From a phage, in the sequence record PZ386970.1: a DNA stretch of 64,000 nucleotides; one strand, given 5' to 3'. The notes beneath the pieces are model-generated. The model did no database searches. It was not told the DNA's origin and saw only the letters and a program-made list of their open reading frames with translations. The translations under genes and the position numbers were made by a program. Numbering within the stretch: the stretch's first letter is position 1; the number at the start of each line of letters is the position of its first letter. Below are positions 4,176 through 43,474 of this stretch, in pieces.

Positions 4176-4412
4176 TTATAGTGTTCCATATACTCGAGTT
4201 GCTTCAACAAGACCATCACTGCCTAATTTAAGATTAGTAATTTGGTCACCATCTTTAGGATTAACGATTATGAGAAAAGAACGTGGAGATTCTTGAATAA
4301 CTCGTAATGTTGCATCCTGGAAACGTTCAGACACTTTATTGATGAGTGCTTGAGCAAATTCTTTTACTTTAATCTGAAATTCGTGTACTGTAATTGGGGT
4401 TTCACTTAGCAT
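4176..4412 (-). CDS. hypothetical protein
   Basis: 78-aa ORF from track. Confidence 0.45.
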   Translation of the reverse strand: MLSETPITVHEFQIKVKEFAQALINKVSERFQDATLRVIQESPRSFLIIVNPKDGDQITNLKLGSDGLVEATRVYGTL

Positions 4413-4471
4413 TTCGATTTCCTCATTGTGTTGGTAGAGTTATAGTATCACAACTCCACCATGTTGTAAAC

Positions 4472-4747
4472 TTAAATTGCAAAACATTTAATTTCTTGTG
4501 AATCGAAATCAACTTCACACTGAATTACTAGATCAGCGTCAAGTCCAAACACAACAATCACATGAGCAGAGCTGGGCAACAATGTAACAGACACAGAATC
4601 CACTTGGTCAGGCACTAGCGTATTCAAAACATAGAGTAGTTCAGAGTGGACCTTAAGCTCAGTAGCCGTATCCAGCTTATCAAAGAAATGATTTGCAATA
4701 ATCTGGCTAAAAACTACCTTTACAATTTCAGAATATTTAGGGAACAT
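4472..4747 (-). CDS. hypothetical protein
   Basis: 91-aa ORF from track. Confidence 0.45.
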   Translation of the reverse strand: MFPKYSEIVKVVFSQIIANHFFDKLDTATELKVHSELLYVLNTLVPDQVDSVSVTLLPSSAHVIVVFGLDADLVIQCEVDFDSQEIKCFAI

Positions 4748-4754
4748 AATTACC

Positions 4755-4979
4755 TCAGTGCACAGTATTTACTTTAACTCGAACAACAAATCGCTCGGTC
4801 GGTTCACCTACAGGAACAAACTCTACATGATATTCGCCTTTGTATCGAGTATTCAGGTCATTACGAATTCCTGCGAGTTTGTTGATTAATGTAGGACTCA
4901 TATTAAGTCCCACTAGTTTACGAAGCATTTTGTATGCTTCATCTTCGATTTCATGATGTTTATCGTACATAGTTTTCAT
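4755..4979 (-). CDS. hypothetical protein
   Basis: 74-aa ORF from track. Confidence 0.45.
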   Translation of the reverse strand: MKTMYDKHHEIEDEAYKMLRKLVGLNMSPTLINKLAGIRNDLNTRYKGEYHVEFVPVGEPTERFVVRVKVNTVH

Positions 4980-37194: not shown

Positions 37195-39408
37195 TTATTT
37201 GGCTGCTTCCACAGCCTTCATGAATTTAACGATTTGAGCGACCTGTTCTTTGGAAAGAGTACCACGTCGTCCCATGTATTCTGACACAATATGATAATTG
37301 GTTTCGAATTCAATAACCATTTTATCATCATTATCGTAAGCATTATCTTTAAGCTTATCGAAAATTTTAGCACACAATTCTAACTTCCTGTTCAGGTCTG
37401 TATTAGTAGCACCTGCGAATCGATTCCATCCCCAACGATTATTTACTGTTGAGAGTTTTGCAAAGTCTTTACTGATTTCTTTGTTCTTAGAGCTAAAATA
37501 CTTACTAAGGAAATTAAGCTCTTCATTACGAGTAATATGATTCAAATAAGGCTGTGCTCTACGACTTGGTGATACATACTCATCATAATCTACTTTATCG
37601 ATTAGCATAATATAGTCATTAATTGATTTTTCAAACAAACATTCTACTTCACCGAGTTTACGAACTTTCTTAGCAATCTGTGGGCGGACTACAGTGAACT
37701 CTTTAATACCTGACAAATCGGCAATACGGGTCAAGAAATTAGAGTCATAGTTCAACCAACCTTTATCTGCGTCAAGACATTCAGCATTAGAACGATTACG
37801 AACTATAGCATAACCTTGGATTTCATCAGCTTCACTCGCTGGAATAAAGAGATCTTCTGATACCCAAACATCGTTTTCATTCTTAAAGAACCGATGAGCA
37901 CTTGGGGATTTAGGACGAGGCTCATTAGTCCGTTTCCTGACTTCAATCCATGGCTTAACGATTTGTAAAAGCTCTGAAGTCTTGTACATGTTAATGTTGT
38001 CGCCATCAAAGATAACTTTAAGGCGTTCCAGAAGTTTCATTGCATCTTCGTCTGTAGGGTCAACGAATAGTACGCTTTTACCAAAACCACGTGGAACTTT
38101 ACCTGATAATTTAACCTCGTCTTTAGACATTTCAATTGAATTAAGAGCTCGCATTAATGGAACGCGTCCCTTAACGTCGTCAATAACAATTTCAACGTTT
38201 TTAATGTTAATGCCGATCAGGCTGTTAATTGAAATGGTTGATGATGAGCTACCACTTTCACGAATACGACGAAGACGAGGAGATTCAACGATATCGTATA
38301 CGACGCCAAGATTACACCACTCAGGCCCCATTTTAAAACGTTTGTACAACTCAGAATAAGTTAGTTGTTCTTTAGAGTATTTCAGTGATTCAATATTAGA
38401 CCCAGCCTTTTCCATGTATTTACGAGCGGTATAGCCAAGAGAATCAATTTCGCGGAACACATGACGTGGGTATTTACAATCAATCCATTTCTTAGAATCT
38501 TCAGCGAACAATTTAGCATCGATTTCTGCAACGCGTTTATGGATATTTGCTACTGTACGTTTATCAAATGACAATGCTTCACGAGACGGGGCTACATCTA
38601 GTTCACCCATAGGGAATTTAATATAAGCTGTAGTGCATCGCGTCATCATCCATGTTTGTTCTTTAATAACACTTCCGATTGGATATACAATGCCGCCATA
38701 AACAGCCATGATATTACCACGTTCACCCCATGGAGCTTCCTTGGCTAAATAAACATCATCGAATTCCGGGAAGTATTTGATATCTTTAACACCACGAACT
38801 TCTGCAATATCGCCGAGAGGACGCATAACATAAGCAATTTCGGATGCAAACTTTTCAAAATCTTCCGGGTTAACCGGTACAACTACTTCTACACCCGTAC
38901 GGTCATCAGGACCCATCTTATCTACAAAGGTCGGCTTAATCTGTGGACCACTGTCATCTTGATAAATTACATAACCACGAACTTCACCATTATGATAAGA
39001 CGTAAGGTTAAACGTATCAGTATATGCTAATGGAGCTTTAGAGCCGAGTCCGAATCCACCAATGAAATCGTTACTCGATGTTTTAGTTGAAGCAAAATAT
39101 GAGTTATAAATTCCTGGCTCTTCGTCATTACCACGAATAGTGAAATCACTCATACCCGGACCAAAGTCTCGAACTACAAAACGTGGGTCTAAACGACCTG
39201 GAGCCTGAACAATAAACTTATCAGTGCAACCATTAAGAATTTGCCCATCAATACAGTTTGTGATTAATTCACGTACACAAGCCAATTCTTTGTTTGTATA
39301 AAGGTCATTAGACAAAATCTTATAAACTTTGCTATTGCCTTGAATAGTGAATGCTGTGCTCTTACCGCCTGAACCAATAATCGTTTCTTTAGCCGTTTCG
39401 ATAATCAT
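37195..39408 (-). CDS. rIIA: RIIA rapid-lysis protein
   Basis: 737-aa ORF directly upstream of rIIB on same strand; N-terminal GHKL-like ATPase region similar to T4 RIIA. Confidence 0.9.
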   Translation of the reverse strand: MIIETAKETIIGSGGKSTAFTIQGNSKVYKILSNDLYTNKELACVRELITNCIDGQILNGCTDKFIVQAPGRLDPRFVVRDFGPGMSDFTIRGNDEEPGIYNSYFASTKTSSNDFIGGFGLGSKAPLAYTDTFNLTSYHNGEVRGYVIYQDDSGPQIKPTFVDKMGPDDRTGVEVVVPVNPEDFEKFASEIAYVMRPLGDIAEVRGVKDIKYFPEFDDVYLAKEAPWGERGNIMAVYGGIVYPIGSVIKEQTWMMTRCTTAYIKFPMGELDVAPSREALSFDKRTVANIHKRVAEIDAKLFAEDSKKWIDCKYPRHVFREIDSLGYTARKYMEKAGSNIESLKYSKEQLTYSELYKRFKMGPEWCNLGVVYDIVESPRLRRIRESGSSSSTISINSLIGINIKNVEIVIDDVKGRVPLMRALNSIEMSKDEVKLSGKVPRGFGKSVLFVDPTDEDAMKLLERLKVIFDGDNINMYKTSELLQIVKPWIEVRKRTNEPRPKSPSAHRFFKNENDVWVSEDLFIPASEADEIQGYAIVRNRSNAECLDADKGWLNYDSNFLTRIADLSGIKEFTVVRPQIAKKVRKLGEVECLFEKSINDYIMLIDKVDYDEYVSPSRRAQPYLNHITRNEELNFLSKYFSSKNKEISKDFAKLSTVNNRWGWNRFAGATNTDLNRKLELCAKIFDKLKDNAYDNDDKMVIEFETNYHIVSEYMGRRGTLSKEQVAQIVKFMKAVEAAK

Positions 39409-39420
39409 GTTTTTCTCTCA

Positions 39421-39621
39421 TCACAAGTTACGTTTAAAAATTTCTGCTACTTCAAGAAGTTCTTCTTTAGTAGCTGTGTCGGTTTGTATTTTATATCGAA
39501 TTTCCTTAAAGCGTTCTTTAAAGGCTTCAGCTGATTCGATATCAAAAAATCTTTGGATAAGCCGGAATTCCCGGAGCACTGCTTTATCAAAAAGTTCCAA
39601 GTCCACGTTATATGTTCTCAT
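39421..39621 (-). CDS. hypothetical protein (rIIA.1-position)
   Basis: 66-aa ORF from track. Confidence 0.5.
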   Translation of the reverse strand: MRTYNVDLELFDKAVLREFRLIQRFFDIESAEAFKERFKEIRYKIQTDTATKEELLEVAEIFKRNL

Positions 39622-39713
39622 AATATTCTCTTCAGTAGATTCCTAGGGCACTATTACTAAAGACCATATAATCTATCATCTTATGTGTAATAGTGCCTCA
39701 GGCGATTCAGGAT

Positions 39714-40814
39714 TTACGCTGTGAAGATTTTATCCCACATCGCAACAACTGCATCTCGATTATACTTCTTCCATACTGCTTCAGCACGTTTAACTCGAGC
39801 TTCGTATGTGTCAGTGAATTCTAATACAGCTTTTGTGTAAAGCGCAACTACTTCTTTCTTAGGAGTAGAAGAATCAATTTCTACACGCACAGTATCTGGG
39901 TCATATTCGAATGTCGCATGAGGATAATCCTTAAAAACTAACTGGATTACAGGGACACCTTTAGAGATGGCTTCAATAGAACTATTCTCTACCGTACCTG
40001 TGTCAGGACACGTATTAATAAGTGCTTTAGCTGTTTTAAGACGTTCCATAATTTCACTGTGTGGAGCATCAATAATAACAGGATATTTAGCTGGTGGTGC
40101 CCATTTACTAGGACAGTATCCTGCACCATTTTCGCCTAGTGCTTTAATCGCTTCAAGAGCAACATCAGTACGACGCATTTTAGTGTCATAACGTTGTGCA
40201 CTAATAATCAGATCAGTCGCCGGAAGAACTTCAGGTTTCTCATTCAAACAAATAACCGGATAATCTTCGGCTTCAAACAACGGATTTGCTCGCCAATAAT
40301 CATAATCAATTTTGTCAGTCAGTCCCGAAGTCATATAACAATATTTACGTTCAAATTCACGGAAGGCTTTAGTAGGAGCATAACTCTTACCACCATTCTT
40401 ATGAATTTGAATAGTCTGGTCCCAAATTTGAACAATGCCACGAGATACCGGCTCAAATGGTGTTGCCATAAAATTCTTATGAACTTTAGAGAGACCTGCG
40501 TCTTTAATTGCCTGAACGGTTAGTTTGGTCGGTTCCATTGTAACAACGAAATCGTACTCATTAATGCCGGCTAGTTCAACAATCTTACGAGCCATAGTAT
40601 AACTCATACCTAGACTGAATTTAGTCAGATGACCAACAGGATGATGATTAACCTTCCAATCACCAAATGTGTCATTATCAAAGCCGATATAATCAATATC
40701 AGCACCGATGGACACAAGATATTTCAACACATTTAAATGTACTGCTTCAAGACCACCTTGTACACGTTCTGGGTTAAATGGGACTGCGCGAGATGGGATA
40801 AACATAACTTTCAT
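39714..40814 (-). CDS. putative GT-B-fold glycosyltransferase (candidate DNA hydroxymethylcytosine sugar transferase)
   Basis: 366-aa ORF; N-terminus MKVMFIPSRAVPFNPERVQGGLEAV...IGADIDYIG and C-terminal block TGTVENSSIEAISKGVPVI resemble GT-B donor-binding motifs; not similar to T4 alpha- or beta-gt as recalled; sits where T4 carries gene 60. Confidence 0.5.
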   Translation of the reverse strand: MKVMFIPSRAVPFNPERVQGGLEAVHLNVLKYLVSIGADIDYIGFDNDTFGDWKVNHHPVGHLTKFSLGMSYTMARKIVELAGINEYDFVVTMEPTKLTVQAIKDAGLSKVHKNFMATPFEPVSRGIVQIWDQTIQIHKNGGKSYAPTKAFREFERKYCYMTSGLTDKIDYDYWRANPLFEAEDYPVICLNEKPEVLPATDLIISAQRYDTKMRRTDVALEAIKALGENGAGYCPSKWAPPAKYPVIIDAPHSEIMERLKTAKALINTCPDTGTVENSSIEAISKGVPVIQLVFKDYPHATFEYDPDTVRVEIDSSTPKKEVVALYTKAVLEFTDTYEARVKRAEAVWKKYNRDAVVAMWDKIFTA

Positions 40815-40837
40815 AATTAAGCCTTATTAAAATTAAA

Positions 40838-40858
40838 ATGAAGCTCCCGAAGGAGCTT
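40838..40858 (-). terminator. hairpin (AAGCUCC-UUCG-GGAGCUU) downstream of HNH endonuclease gene
   Basis: perfect stem with tetraloop followed by AT-rich tract. Confidence 0.45.
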
Positions 40859-41669
40859 AGGACATCCAACACATTTTATAACCTTTGCAGGTTCTGTTAG
40901 GATTATTTAATGCTTTCAATATATTAGAAGACCCTATACCTAAATACTCCCTTAATTCATAAAGATAGTTAAAATCAATAGTTTCACCTGTTTTTACACT
41001 TGTGATTCTTATAGGCCTTCTTTCATATTTAGATTTATACAACTCTCTAGTCTTAGCTTTAGTTTCTTCTGACCTAGGAGTGTATGGTTTAAATCCTTTT
41101 GTTTTAAATGTTTCCATTCTTGATTTAGTTATTTTATCCTGGTGTTCTTTTGTTTTTACAGGTGCTTTTCGCCCATTCTCCCAAGATAACTTGTTGGCCT
41201 GTATTATTTTATCTATTGCTTCTTGCGTATGAGTTTTACCATAAAATGGATTTAATTCGCCTATACGTTGTGAAGCAATATGTGACATTAATTCTCTTGT
41301 TGCTTTAGTATGTTTTTTACCTTTAAATGGGTTGCCATTTTTAGCAATCCATTCTTTCATAAATCTAGAGTGCTCTTTAGAGAATTCTTGTTTAAGCCAA
41401 TCATAATCTCTAGAATTTCTAGCTCCCATGTAAAAAGCTCTAATAGCCATAAGCGTAGAACGGTTCTTATGAATTTTATAAAGCAATAAATGGGCGATAA
41501 AATGCTCTCTAGGGGTCATTTTAACTAGATTTGATTTAGCATTACTCCCGCCCATAGATTTAGGCAAAATATGGTGAGTTTCAGTATAATTAGGAATAGT
41601 GCTGCGGTTTTTAGCCGCAGCGATAAGTTTATCATAAATTTTACGATAATTCATTATCCTAGCATCCAA
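40857..41669 (-). CDS. HNH-family homing endonuclease with NUMOD3 repeats (MobA-like position)
   Basis: 270-aa ORF; HNH motif ETHHILPKSMGGSNAKSNLVKMTPREHFIAH; repeated NUMOD3-like units NPFKGKKHTKATRELM / NPFYGKTHTQEAIDKI; probable start at internal ATG overlapping gene 39 stop. Confidence 0.8.
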   Translation of the reverse strand: MDARIMNYRKIYDKLIAAAKNRSTIPNYTETHHILPKSMGGSNAKSNLVKMTPREHFIAHLLLYKIHKNRSTLMAIRAFYMGARNSRDYDWLKQEFSKEHSRFMKEWIAKNGNPFKGKKHTKATRELMSHIASQRIGELNPFYGKTHTQEAIDKIIQANKLSWENGRKAPVKTKEHQDKITKSRMETFKTKGFKPYTPRSEETKAKTRELYKSKYERRPIRITSVKTGETIDFNYLYELREYLGIGSSNILKALNNPNRTCKGYKMCWMS

Positions 41670-43474
41670 TCTTTACGGAGTTCAGGGTCGTTACCCATGA
41701 GCATTTCAAATAGTTCTTTCCAATTTTCAGGAAGTTTAACTACGTCGTACACAGGGTTTTGAATCATTTCTTTATATTCATCCCGCTGAAGTGAGCCCAA
41801 TCCCTTGATGTATCGAATACTATGCTTAGGCAGTGTATCTTTAGCTTCTTCATACTCAGCTACAGTATAAAACCATTTTTGAGATTTGCCAATTTGTGCA
41901 ATAATTACAGGTGTTTTAACAAAGCGAATACGTCCTTGTTCAAACAATTCAGGCCAATTACTAAAGAAAGCAAGCAAAGCCGGATAGATACTTCCAAGAC
42001 CGTCATGATCGGCATCGGTCATAATTGCAATATTACGATAGTTCGTATTCTCTGCCTTTTCACCAAGAATAAGACCTGTGATAGCACAGATATCAAAGAG
42101 CTCTTTGTTCTTCATCATATCAGCATATGACATACCCCAGCTATTCATCACCTTACCACGTAACGGGAATCCACCATGTAGTTCACGGTCACGAACATCA
42201 ATGAGATAACCAATTGCCGAATCACCTTCTGTTAAGAACAATGTCGTATCTGCATCTTTACCACATTGGTTAGCTTTAATATGCTTATGAACCTTAGCTT
42301 TAGTTGCCTTTTTAGCTGCTTTAGTTTCTGCAGCCTTTTCTGCTGCCAATTTACGAGCTAATGCTGCTTCAACAATAGGCATAATCAAGGCTTCGTTTTT
42401 AAGAAGCGCCTGAGCAATTTTCTTAGCATCTAATTGGATATGATTACGAATATCACCATACGTTGACGTTAAACGTTCTTTAGTCTGAGAATCAAAACGC
42501 ATGTTGCTCATGTCTCTAATAAACATCAACATTGTGAGACATTCTTTAACACGAGCTTTAGTGACTTCAATACCCTTATATTTCTTTTTAATACCCGGCA
42601 AAAGATGTTCGCAGATATCATCCATTACACATTCAACATGATGACCGCCATTTTTAGTATGGATGTTATTAACATAAGTTAAATGACGGAAGCCATCTGG
42701 TGATGTTGTGAATGCTATAGAGACTTTATCATTTTCTTGAATGATGTTATCTTCACCAAATTGTTTAGCAAATCGTTTAAAATTACCATCAACCTTTTTA
42801 CCATTAAATGTGAACTTGATATCAGGATAAACGACTGCCAATGTTTGAAGTCGGTCTAAAGTAATATCTAAATAAATTTGAGATAAATTATGCTCTTCAA
42901 ATGAAGAGAAATCAGGAGTGAAGATTACTTTAGTGCCTTTACCTTTAGATTTCTTAGAAGACCATGATTTGTTTTCCATTCCATTTGAACAGTTAACAGT
43001 GATTTCATTTTCACCATCTGACGTGATGCCTGTAAACAACGTAGAGAAGATATTAGTTAAACTACTCCCGACGCCGTTCATACCACCAGTCTTGCGTTCA
43101 GAATCATCACCAAAGTTACCACCAGCTTTTGGAATAGTCCAGGCTGCTACAGGCCCAGGAATTTGTTCACCTGTTTGGTCGGTAACTAAACCTTGAGGAA
43201 TACCACGTCCGTTATCTTCAACCGAAACTTGATTATTTTTAATTTGCACATCAATTTTATTTGCAAACTTAAATGATGTACGAATAGCTTCATCAACTGA
43301 GTTGTCAATAATCTCATCGATTAATTTAACCAGGCCAGGAACATATTCAACTTGTTGATATTTACCAAACAAAAAACGCTCATGTGCTTCTTTGGCCGAA
43401 GAACCAATATACATACCACTACGTTTCTTAATATGTTCTACATCTGACAATACCTTAATTTCATTTTTAATCAT
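41654..43474 (-). CDS. 39: DNA topoisomerase II large subunit (GyrB-like ATPase + TOPRIM), unsplit 39/60
   Basis: 606-aa continuous ORF with GHKL ATPase N-terminus and TOPRIM C-terminus; no separate gene 60. Confidence 0.9.
   Translation of the reverse strand: MIKNEIKVLSDVEHIKKRSGMYIGSSAKEAHERFLFGKYQQVEYVPGLVKLIDEIIDNSVDEAIRTSFKFANKIDVQIKNNQVSVEDNGRGIPQGLVTDQTGEQIPGPVAAWTIPKAGGNFGDDSERKTGGMNGVGSSLTNIFSTLFTGITSDGENEITVNCSNGMENKSWSSKKSKGKGTKVIFTPDFSSFEEHNLSQIYLDITLDRLQTLAVVYPDIKFTFNGKKVDGNFKRFAKQFGEDNIIQENDKVSIAFTTSPDGFRHLTYVNNIHTKNGGHHVECVMDDICEHLLPGIKKKYKGIEVTKARVKECLTMLMFIRDMSNMRFDSQTKERLTSTYGDIRNHIQLDAKKIAQALLKNEALIMPIVEAALARKLAAEKAAETKAAKKATKAKVHKHIKANQCGKDADTTLFLTEGDSAIGYLIDVRDRELHGGFPLRGKVMNSWGMSYADMMKNKELFDICAITGLILGEKAENTNYRNIAIMTDADHDGLGSIYPALLAFFSNWPELFEQGRIRFVKTPVIIAQIGKSQKWFYTVAEYEEAKDTLPKHSIRYIKGLGSLQRDEYKEMIQNPVYDVVKLPENWKELFEMLMGNDPELRKDWMLG

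Follow-up and report, generated by a model that had tools for sequence, protein, structure and literature searches.

Why should a gene for a homing endonuclease sit at the very end of gene 39, which encodes the large subunit of DNA topoisomerase II, in a T4-like phage that keeps gene 39 whole? The locus lies in a window of 64,000 nucleotides (nt) from phage record PZ386970.1; all coordinates are positions in this window unless another genome is named. The phage is a Mosigvirus (RB69-like), and p000v, phiE142, and phiC120 are ~98% identical to it. We conclude that the gene probably represents an uncharacterized family of free-standing homing endonucleases, similar in type to the Mob enzymes of T4, with a fixed address at the gene 39 stop codon; the best reading of the sequence comparisons is that it is active as a homing endonuclease, or was until recently, and that it would target the 3′ end of gene 39. 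The argument starts from what can be read directly in the genomes: an insertion with its boundaries, its presence or absence in relatives, an intact HNH motif, flanks that travel with the gene, a transfer between genera, and an association with the end of gene 39 in distant phages.

An 800-bp insertion at the stop codon of an unsplit gene 39

The features on which the argument depends are as follows.

41654–43474, minus strand: gene 39, DNA topoisomerase II large subunit, unsplit, 606 amino acids (aa); host gene and presumed target of the endonuclease
40857–41669, minus strand: endonuclease open reading frame (ORF) as listed, 270 aa counted from a TTG
40857–41654, minus strand: homing endonuclease coding sequence, 265 aa; its ATG (41652–41654) overlaps the gene 39 stop codon TAA (41654–41656)
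40863–41662, minus strand: 800-bp insertion relative to endonuclease-free Mosigviruses, placed by the APCEc01 alignment, the empty site of NHEP36, and the coordinates
40841–40858, minus strand: terminator-like hairpin AAGCUCCUUCGGGAGCUU with a U-rich tail, directly after gene 39 in endonuclease-free relatives and here after the endonuclease
39714–40814, minus strand: 366-aa ORF, homologue of RB69 ORF003c

Every gene in the stretch 37195–43474 is encoded by the minus strand. Gene 39 is a single continuous ORF with HATPase_c, DNA_gyraseB, and Toprim domains, and the window has neither gene 60 nor a translational bypass at the gene 39 locus; in this the original prediction, made from the sequence of this stretch without database searches, was correct. 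Its further suggestion that the locus might preserve a pre-split state does not hold: RB69, PST, and hundreds of other phages also have gene 39 in one piece, so that this is the usual condition and nothing special here.

In endonuclease-free Mosigviruses (APCEc01, RB69), gene 39 ends with …AAAGAATGGATG TCC TAA and is followed by a UUCG hairpin terminator and the 366-aa gene. The insert in the window begins with CTAGGATAATG, which supplies gene 39 with a new Leu-Gly-stop and the endonuclease with a Shine-Dalgarno sequence and an ATG; its last six bases, TGGATG, repeat those at 41663–41668, so that the endonuclease ORF closes on the original last codon and stop codon of gene 39 (TCC TAA, 40857–40862). 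The gene 39 terminator lies after the endonuclease, which is therefore inside the gene 39 transcription unit. The gene is free-standing (no intron, no intein), that is, it occupies the space between the gene 39 stop codon and the terminator and leaves gene 39 continuous. The GC content of the insertion is 32.2%, as compared with 36.5% for gene 39 and 39.3% for the 366-aa gene, and no paralogue of the endonuclease occurs elsewhere in the 64-kb window.

The gene had been predicted to begin within the last codons of gene 39. The minus-strand ORF is real, but the TTG at 41669 is an upstream in-frame start picked by the ORF lister; the true start is likely the ATG at 41654, on the gene 39 stop codon, because p000v is annotated with this start in RefSeq and the alignment of all family members begins at MNY.... 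Stop and start codon overlap by one base (TAATG), with AGGA four bases upstream (41657–41660).

The protein matches NUMOD3 (Pfam, E = 5e-9) and PHROG 655, ‘homing endonuclease’ (E = 3.5e-53). The HNH residues H27, H28, N42, H51, and H55 are intact, and in a 34-sequence alignment the invariant or near-invariant HNH positions are all retained (Y23, E25, H27, H28, I29, P31, G35, G36, N42, H51, and H55); these domains and residues support the prediction of a free-standing HNH/NUMOD3 homing endonuclease coupled to the end of an unsplit gene 39. The protein thus has the HNH β-β-α metal finger with conserved His, Asn, and His of the Mob and I-HmuI-like enzymes, together with separate predicted DNA-binding modules (NUMOD3 and a C-terminal helix-turn-helix-like domain). 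The HNH domain (residues ~1–70) is followed by a helical NUMOD3 region and a small C-terminal predicted DNA-binding domain (residues ~215–263); an AlphaFold model (pLDDT 87) has the same order, with an N-terminal β-β-α unit, long helices across the NUMOD3 region, and a small C-terminal domain. A sequence search of the PDB with the endonuclease returned just a marginal match to the HNH domain of McrA (E = 0.39). GenBank annotates the gene, and the phiC120 genome paper names a ‘homing endonuclease (ORF 117) with NUMOD3’ in passing (PMC8022965); our literature search found no paper that characterizes this endonuclease functionally.

Presence and absence among near-identical genomes

The endonuclease gene is found in 28 phage records with 98.4–99.7% nt identity, and 26 of these match over the full 798 nt. 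More than 100 Mosigvirus records with flanks that are 97–98% identical lack exactly these 800 bp; the element is therefore present or absent at one fixed site among near-identical genomes, with the same junctions throughout. The carriers, which come from several countries, include ~16 Mosigviruses and six phages of a second genus, Tequatrovirus (fPS-90, F1, FN, FL12, BYEP01, and CJY920). In the eight carrier copies that were translated, the ORF is intact and the catalytic residues are conserved; the gene is neither degenerate nor universal, but polymorphic among close relatives.

An A6 run within the gene (GGTAAAAAACAT, 41310–41321, minus strand) is A7 in AV118 (+1) and A5 in ECO111 5-P (−1), and the frame is shifted in both.

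A site distinct from that of mobA

Is this the site at which T4 carries mobA, as the original prediction proposed? T4 gp39 residues 1–473 align to residues 1–474 of the window gp39 (79% identity), and T4 gp60 residues 27–158 align to residues 473–604 (83% identity); the mobA split therefore falls at ~codon 474, ~132 codons (~400 nt) upstream of the present insertion, which is at codon 605/606, at the gene 39 stop. Manning & Atkins place the MobA insertion at nt 1399–1419 of the Topo2L gene (bioRxiv 10.1101/2022.08.31.505936). Gene 39 in the window is not split there, and its alignment with T4 gp39 and gp60 is continuous, with no extra tails and no coding gap, that is, with neither the extension tails nor the 50-nt bypass cassette of the MobA arrangement.

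One phage carries both elements. CJY920 (PQ349265, 900–4559; the record is marked UNVERIFIED) is of the T4 type, with a split gene 39 (517 aa), an intact 272-aa MobA, gene 60, and then this endonuclease; these are therefore two different and independent Mob-type elements in one topoisomerase gene. The endonuclease aligns with the intact MobA of CJY920 over residues 1–71 (59% identity) and shows no significant similarity to it in the remainder, so the two are not full-length orthologues. The proposal that the locus is the mobA hotspot, either before the split or after an alternative outcome of the same invasion, with the adjacent glycosyltransferase-like gene as cargo, can draw on the fact that gene 39 has been hit by two Mob-type HNH genes with related N-termini. 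It is hardly credible, however, given the distance between the sites, the coexistence of the elements in CJY920, the lack of relationship beyond the HNH domain, and the fact that RB69 and APCEc01, which lack the endonuclease, have ORF003c behind an identical spacer. Identity with the mobA site and the cargo role are refuted by the gp39/gp60 alignment, CJY920, and the presence of ORF003c in endonuclease-free genomes.

The end of gene 39 that travels with the endonuclease

The end of gene 39 was checked in three Mosigvirus carriers (the window, p000v, and AV109) and five Tequatrovirus carriers (fPS-90, F1, FL12, BYEP01, and CJY920). Its last ~160 nt are identical in all of them, whatever the backbone, and the outer boundaries of the shared segment vary (at about −160, −350, −400, and −730 nt), as in co-conversion of flanks. 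The window and endonuclease-free APCEc01 are 95–100% identical over nt 1–1680 of gene 39 and 78–85% identical over its last 140 nt; conversely, identity between the window and the carrier AV109 is 61–82% in the first 1.1 kb of gene 39 and rises to 94–100% in a 1.8-kb block centered on the endonuclease. The differences between carriers and naive phages fall into two clusters.

41771–41788, minus strand: variant cluster 1, directly after the KGLGS codons; CAGCGGGATGAATATAAA (QRDEYK) in carriers, GAAAAGTCAGAATATCGT (EKSEYR) in naive phages of both genera
41654–41704, minus strand: variant cluster 2, the last 51 nt of gene 39; …MLMGNDPELRKDWMLG and stop in carriers, …MGDDSELRKEWMS and stop in naive Mosigviruses, …MGDNADLRKEWMSQ and stop in naive Tequatroviruses

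At cluster 1, all 28 carrier records are at least 99.4% identical, and none of the 28 combines the endonuclease with a naive cluster 1; naive Mosigviruses and naive Tequatroviruses share a sequence there that is unlike that of the carriers. A carrier-like gene 39 end occurs in 37 of 1077 matching records, namely the 28 carriers and nine endonuclease-free phages, which fall into three types.

Cluster 1 only: JM17 and SP21535, the latter a Tequatrovirus carrying a patch of the Mosigvirus type; converted at cluster 1 and naive at cluster 2
Exact empty site: NHEP36; converted at both clusters, with …GATTGGATG running directly into TCCTAA
Footprint: TH12, OLB35, LF82-4, phiEC1, TH58, and CCU7; both clusters converted plus a 19-nt insert, CTTGGTTAATTGATAGATG

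For the footprint type, the sequences of TH12 and OLB35 were read, and LF82-4, phiEC1, TH58, and CCU7 were assigned from the BLAST match only. The 19-nt insert (at the equivalent of ~41654–41668 in TH12 and OLB35) resembles the two ends of the 800-bp element, and gene 39 then ends with …WMLG and a stop; it may be a deletion scar or the ancestral state.

Because the patches in JM17 and SP21535 contain cluster 1 only and none of the carriers is naive there, we tentatively regard cluster 1 as the candidate cut or immunity region, at a confidence somewhat below even. The cluster-1-only patches would fit repair tracts that started from cluster 1 and stopped short of the endonuclease gene. An active homing endonuclease with its target, and the immunity to it, at the insertion site or in cluster 2 (the last ~50 nt) is possible but rather doubtful. 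Many homing endonucleases cut at or beside their insertion site; the insertion here breaks the native sequence between …GAATGGATG and TCCTAA, cluster 2 is recoded in all carriers, and the FEMLMG and RKEWM codons are conserved across the host genes of the family described below. Tequatrovirus carriers nevertheless keep the intact native last 32 nt (CTGACCTTCGTAAAGAATGGATGAGCCAGTAG) downstream of the endonuclease with no apparent harm, and the JM17 and SP21535 patches cover cluster 1 and exclude cluster 2, which a tract starting from cluster 2 would not do.

Transfer from Mosigvirus to Tequatrovirus

In Tequatrovirus carriers, the insert is 914 nt relative to PST. Upstream of the endonuclease, their gene 39 turns to the Mosigvirus type at about −400 nt in fPS-90, F1, and BYEP01, at −350 in FL12, and at −160 in CJY920. 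The downstream junction, in contrast to these variable boundaries, is the same in all five Tequatrovirus carriers examined: the Mosigvirus terminator and spacer (42 nt), then 49 nt of ORF003c, then the retained native end of gene 39. The piece of ORF003c corresponds to the following segment of the window.

40766–40814, minus strand: first 49 nt of ORF003c, held in the AV109-type version by Tequatrovirus carriers after the endonuclease and the 42-nt spacer

The fusion point is a microhomology, AAT(C/G)CTGACC, between the ORF003c stub and the duplicated native end of gene 39. Because one common illegitimate junction is combined with variable homologous boundaries, the sequences indicate that the element entered Tequatrovirus once, from an AV109-like Mosigvirus, and then spread within that genus. 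The exchange between genera is notable given that RB69 has been described as unable to recombine with T4 (PMC6024577).

A family at the gene 39 stop codon

Among 5.8 billion proteins searched, only three further full-length relatives were identified (P0002–P0004), all metagenomic and 42–45% identical to the endonuclease. All three are encoded at the stop codon of an unsplit gene 39 on contigs from divergent T4-like phages, in the following arrangements.

Contigs L015–L017: GTG start overlapping the TGA stop (GTGA); downstream, a small ORF and then rIIA.1
Contig L018: 34-nt gap with a hairpin; downstream, RNA ligase 2
Contigs L019–L021: ATGA overlap; downstream, another gene

The downstream genes differ between contigs; gene 39 is therefore the sole common flank, and the homing target must lie in gene 39. 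The cluster-1 residues in these metagenomic host genes are QRSEYG, SQDEYG, and TEDEYS, and the FEMLMG and RKEWM codons are those conserved throughout. On L015, a duplicated gene 39 end overlaps the endonuclease stop codon.

In tblastn searches with P0003 and P0004, the best match among cultured phages was the endonuclease gene described here, and no other cultured phage with another variant of the family was found; a scan of IMG/VR with the subfamily alignment returned generic Mob-like HNH domains only and no close full-length member. The best cultured matches to the L015 carrier are ~71% identical (Karamvirus), too distant for comparison with an endonuclease-free relative.

Nuclease-like ORFs are also found directly upstream of gene 39. 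AV109 has a 227-aa ORF with three NUMOD3 stretches there (4214–4897 in the AV109 locus), adjoining a 5′ part of gene 39 that is just 61–82% identical to that of the window; L015 has a 235-aa ORF with an Endonuclease_7 domain (1144–1851). Homing may also take place at the 5′ end of gene 39.

Expression

A promoter scan near the endonuclease found no promoter-like excess, and the exact TATAAATA is absent nearby. The carrier change creates TATAAAGA ~120 nt upstream of the ATG, which we considered as a late promoter and dropped for the same two reasons. The mRNA around the endonuclease start (41590–41740, minus strand) has a minimum free energy of −34.8 kcal/mol (z = −3.36; one of 200 shuffles as stable). 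In the predicted fold, the Shine-Dalgarno sequence (UAGGA, 41657–41661) pairs with UCCUA ~65 nt downstream, within 41590–41599. Two hairpins lie inside this pairing, and one of these has a perfect stem of 7 bp (41601–41621); the predicted structure may limit translation.

The neighboring ORF003c

The 366-aa ORF downstream of the endonuclease matches PHROG 8302 and is identical to RB69 ORF003c (RB69p003) at 364 of 366 positions; ORF003c has been proposed to encode the DNA arabinosyltransferase of RB69-like phages (PMC6024577, PMC13326640), a putative enzyme with a GT-B fold. Two further genes follow.

39421–39621, minus strand: rIIA.1, 66 aa
37195–39408, minus strand: rIIA, 737 aa

ORF003c lies outside the element. 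Endonuclease-free RB69, APCEc01, TH12, OLB35, NHEP36, and JM17 have it in the same position, preceded by the same spacer, and it is missing from Tequatrovirus carriers except for the 49-nt stub; it does not, then, occur only together with the endonuclease. Because it is present in endonuclease-free relatives, ORF003c is not cargo: the glycosyltransferase-like gene that the endonuclease was thought to have brought along is a resident of endonuclease-free Mosigviruses. Annotations should therefore not take ORF003c as cargo and should start the endonuclease at the ATG at 41654. The phage probably has arabinosylated cytosines like those of RB69, since it carries this homologue of ORF003c.

A 400-nt block of ORF003c (40187–40586, minus strand) is a mosaic patch, 79–86% identical between the window and AV109 and flanked by 96–100% identity on both sides.

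A model for homing at the end of gene 39

We propose the following sequence of events. The endonuclease gene, having no promoter of its own, would be transcribed with gene 39 before the terminator, its translation coupled at TAATG with the help of AGGA. During mixed infection, the enzyme would nick or cut the 3′ part of gene 39 in phages without the endonuclease, and recombinational repair would use the carrier genome as template and so copy the endonuclease gene along with the neighboring part of gene 39. The carrier itself would be protected by its recoded last ~160 nt, the likeliest protective site being the QRDEYK-for-EKSEYR replacement, 117–134 nt upstream of the ATG.

Several points weigh against this model. 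Cleavage activity, the choice between a nick and a double-strand break, the position of the cut, the basis of immunity, and the mode of expression are all deduced from sequence. Recombination is frequent among T4-like phages and could produce both the mosaic blocks and the JM17 and SP21535 patches without cleavage; the same patches would arise from ordinary recombination within the conserved sequence that separates the clusters. The carrier-type allele is also found without the endonuclease (NHEP36; TH12, OLB35, LF82-4, phiEC1, TH58, and CCU7), and the variant clusters may simply be the natural allele of the lineage that was first invaded. According to the Manning & Atkins preprint (bioRxiv 10.1101/2022.08.31.505936), nicking by MobA is not blocked by flanking polymorphisms alone, so recoding need not explain immunity. 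The 28 carrier records are non-independent samples, and the frameshifts of AV118 and ECO111 5-P, at the same A6 run, reflect either starting decay at a slippage hotspot or sequencing error.

A rival explanation is that the endonuclease is a passive passenger, that is, an inactive or immobile remnant whose patchy distribution and common flanks result from ordinary recombination among co-infecting T4-like phages. The existence of mosaic blocks unrelated to the endonuclease (e.g., the block in ORF003c), of carrier-type alleles that lack it, and of two frameshifted copies is compatible with this explanation. We nevertheless consider it improbable: the ORF is intact in all eight translated copies and full length in 26 of 28 records, across two genera and several countries; sequence conservation is much higher in the endonuclease than in its flanks; the gene made its way via microhomology into a genus without the downstream homology and then spread with variable upstream boundaries; and its association with the end of gene 39 persists down to 42% protein identity.

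Beyond the model of homing into gene 39 itself, a joint reading can be offered, although we judge it to fall a little short of probable. It holds that a new Mob-like family is dedicated to the last ~160 nt of gene 39; that immunity would be conferred by the non-synonymous recoding of EKSEYR to QRDEYK beside KGLGS, with no insertion or bypass; and that break repair would have carried DNA of an arabinosyl-Mosigvirus into a Tequatrovirus with glucosylated hydroxymethylcytosine, leaving a stub of the arabinosyltransferase gene behind. If it is true, homing endonucleases are a route by which the genetic isolation between differently hypermodified phage genera is breached.

As a kind of element, this endonuclease is ordinary; its family is uncharacterized and has its own landing site. 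It is of interest for its clean series of alleles, for the position at the gene 39 end that the whole family shares, for its occurrence alongside mobA in one phage, and for the jump between genera. The natural series of alleles (naive, cluster 1 only, empty site, 19-nt footprint, and full insertion) amounts to a ready-made experiment for mapping target and immunity, and the Mosigvirus-to-Tequatrovirus junction is a datable record of DNA exchange between genera with different DNA hypermodifications.

Comparison with known systems

I-HmuI (PDB 1U3E), the HNH nicking enzyme of Bacillus phage SPO1, is only 14% identical to the endonuclease, is encoded in an intron, and has a different target gene. 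The marker exclusion by T4 SegF and SegG resembles what we propose here, in that a distant cut in a conserved neighbor is followed by repair that co-converts the segment between (PMC2988022); the Seg proteins, however, are GIY-YIG enzymes, and the cut site of the present endonuclease is only inferred.

The MobA/gene 60 element (Bonocora et al., 2011, as summarized by Manning & Atkins) uses the same host gene, the large subunit of topoisomerase II, and shows recurrent recent spread within clades and a carrier gene copy that differs from the parental sequence near the presumed target. The same preprint describes MobA as inserting within the Toprim domain, splitting the ORF, adding C- and N-terminal extension tails, and being protected by a 50-nt bypass insert (bioRxiv 10.1101/2022.08.31.505936). 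Here, in contrast, the element lies at the stop codon and needs no bypass, because the ORF stays whole (the sole change is from S to LG at the C-terminus). This is a second, independent Mob-type family that uses the phage topoisomerase gene; as it keeps that gene in one piece, it offers a useful contrast to the intensively studied mobA/gene 60 bypass system.

A close parallel is the T4 Mob family as a whole (MobA–MobE, especially MobE at nrdA/nrdB, and MobA). The T4 mob genes are promoterless cassettes in existing transcription units, with starts that overlap the upstream ORF, and they combine a common HNH head with distinct DNA-binding bodies (PMC2988022); the layout of the present gene matches, with an HNH head and a distinct C-terminal predicted DNA-binding region, and so do its patchy distribution and co-converted flanks. 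It departs from the T4 genes in that it matches mobB, mobD, and mobE over the N-terminal part only (~23–47% of its length), and in that its address, the gene 39 stop codon, is a new one at which the host gene is left unsplit.

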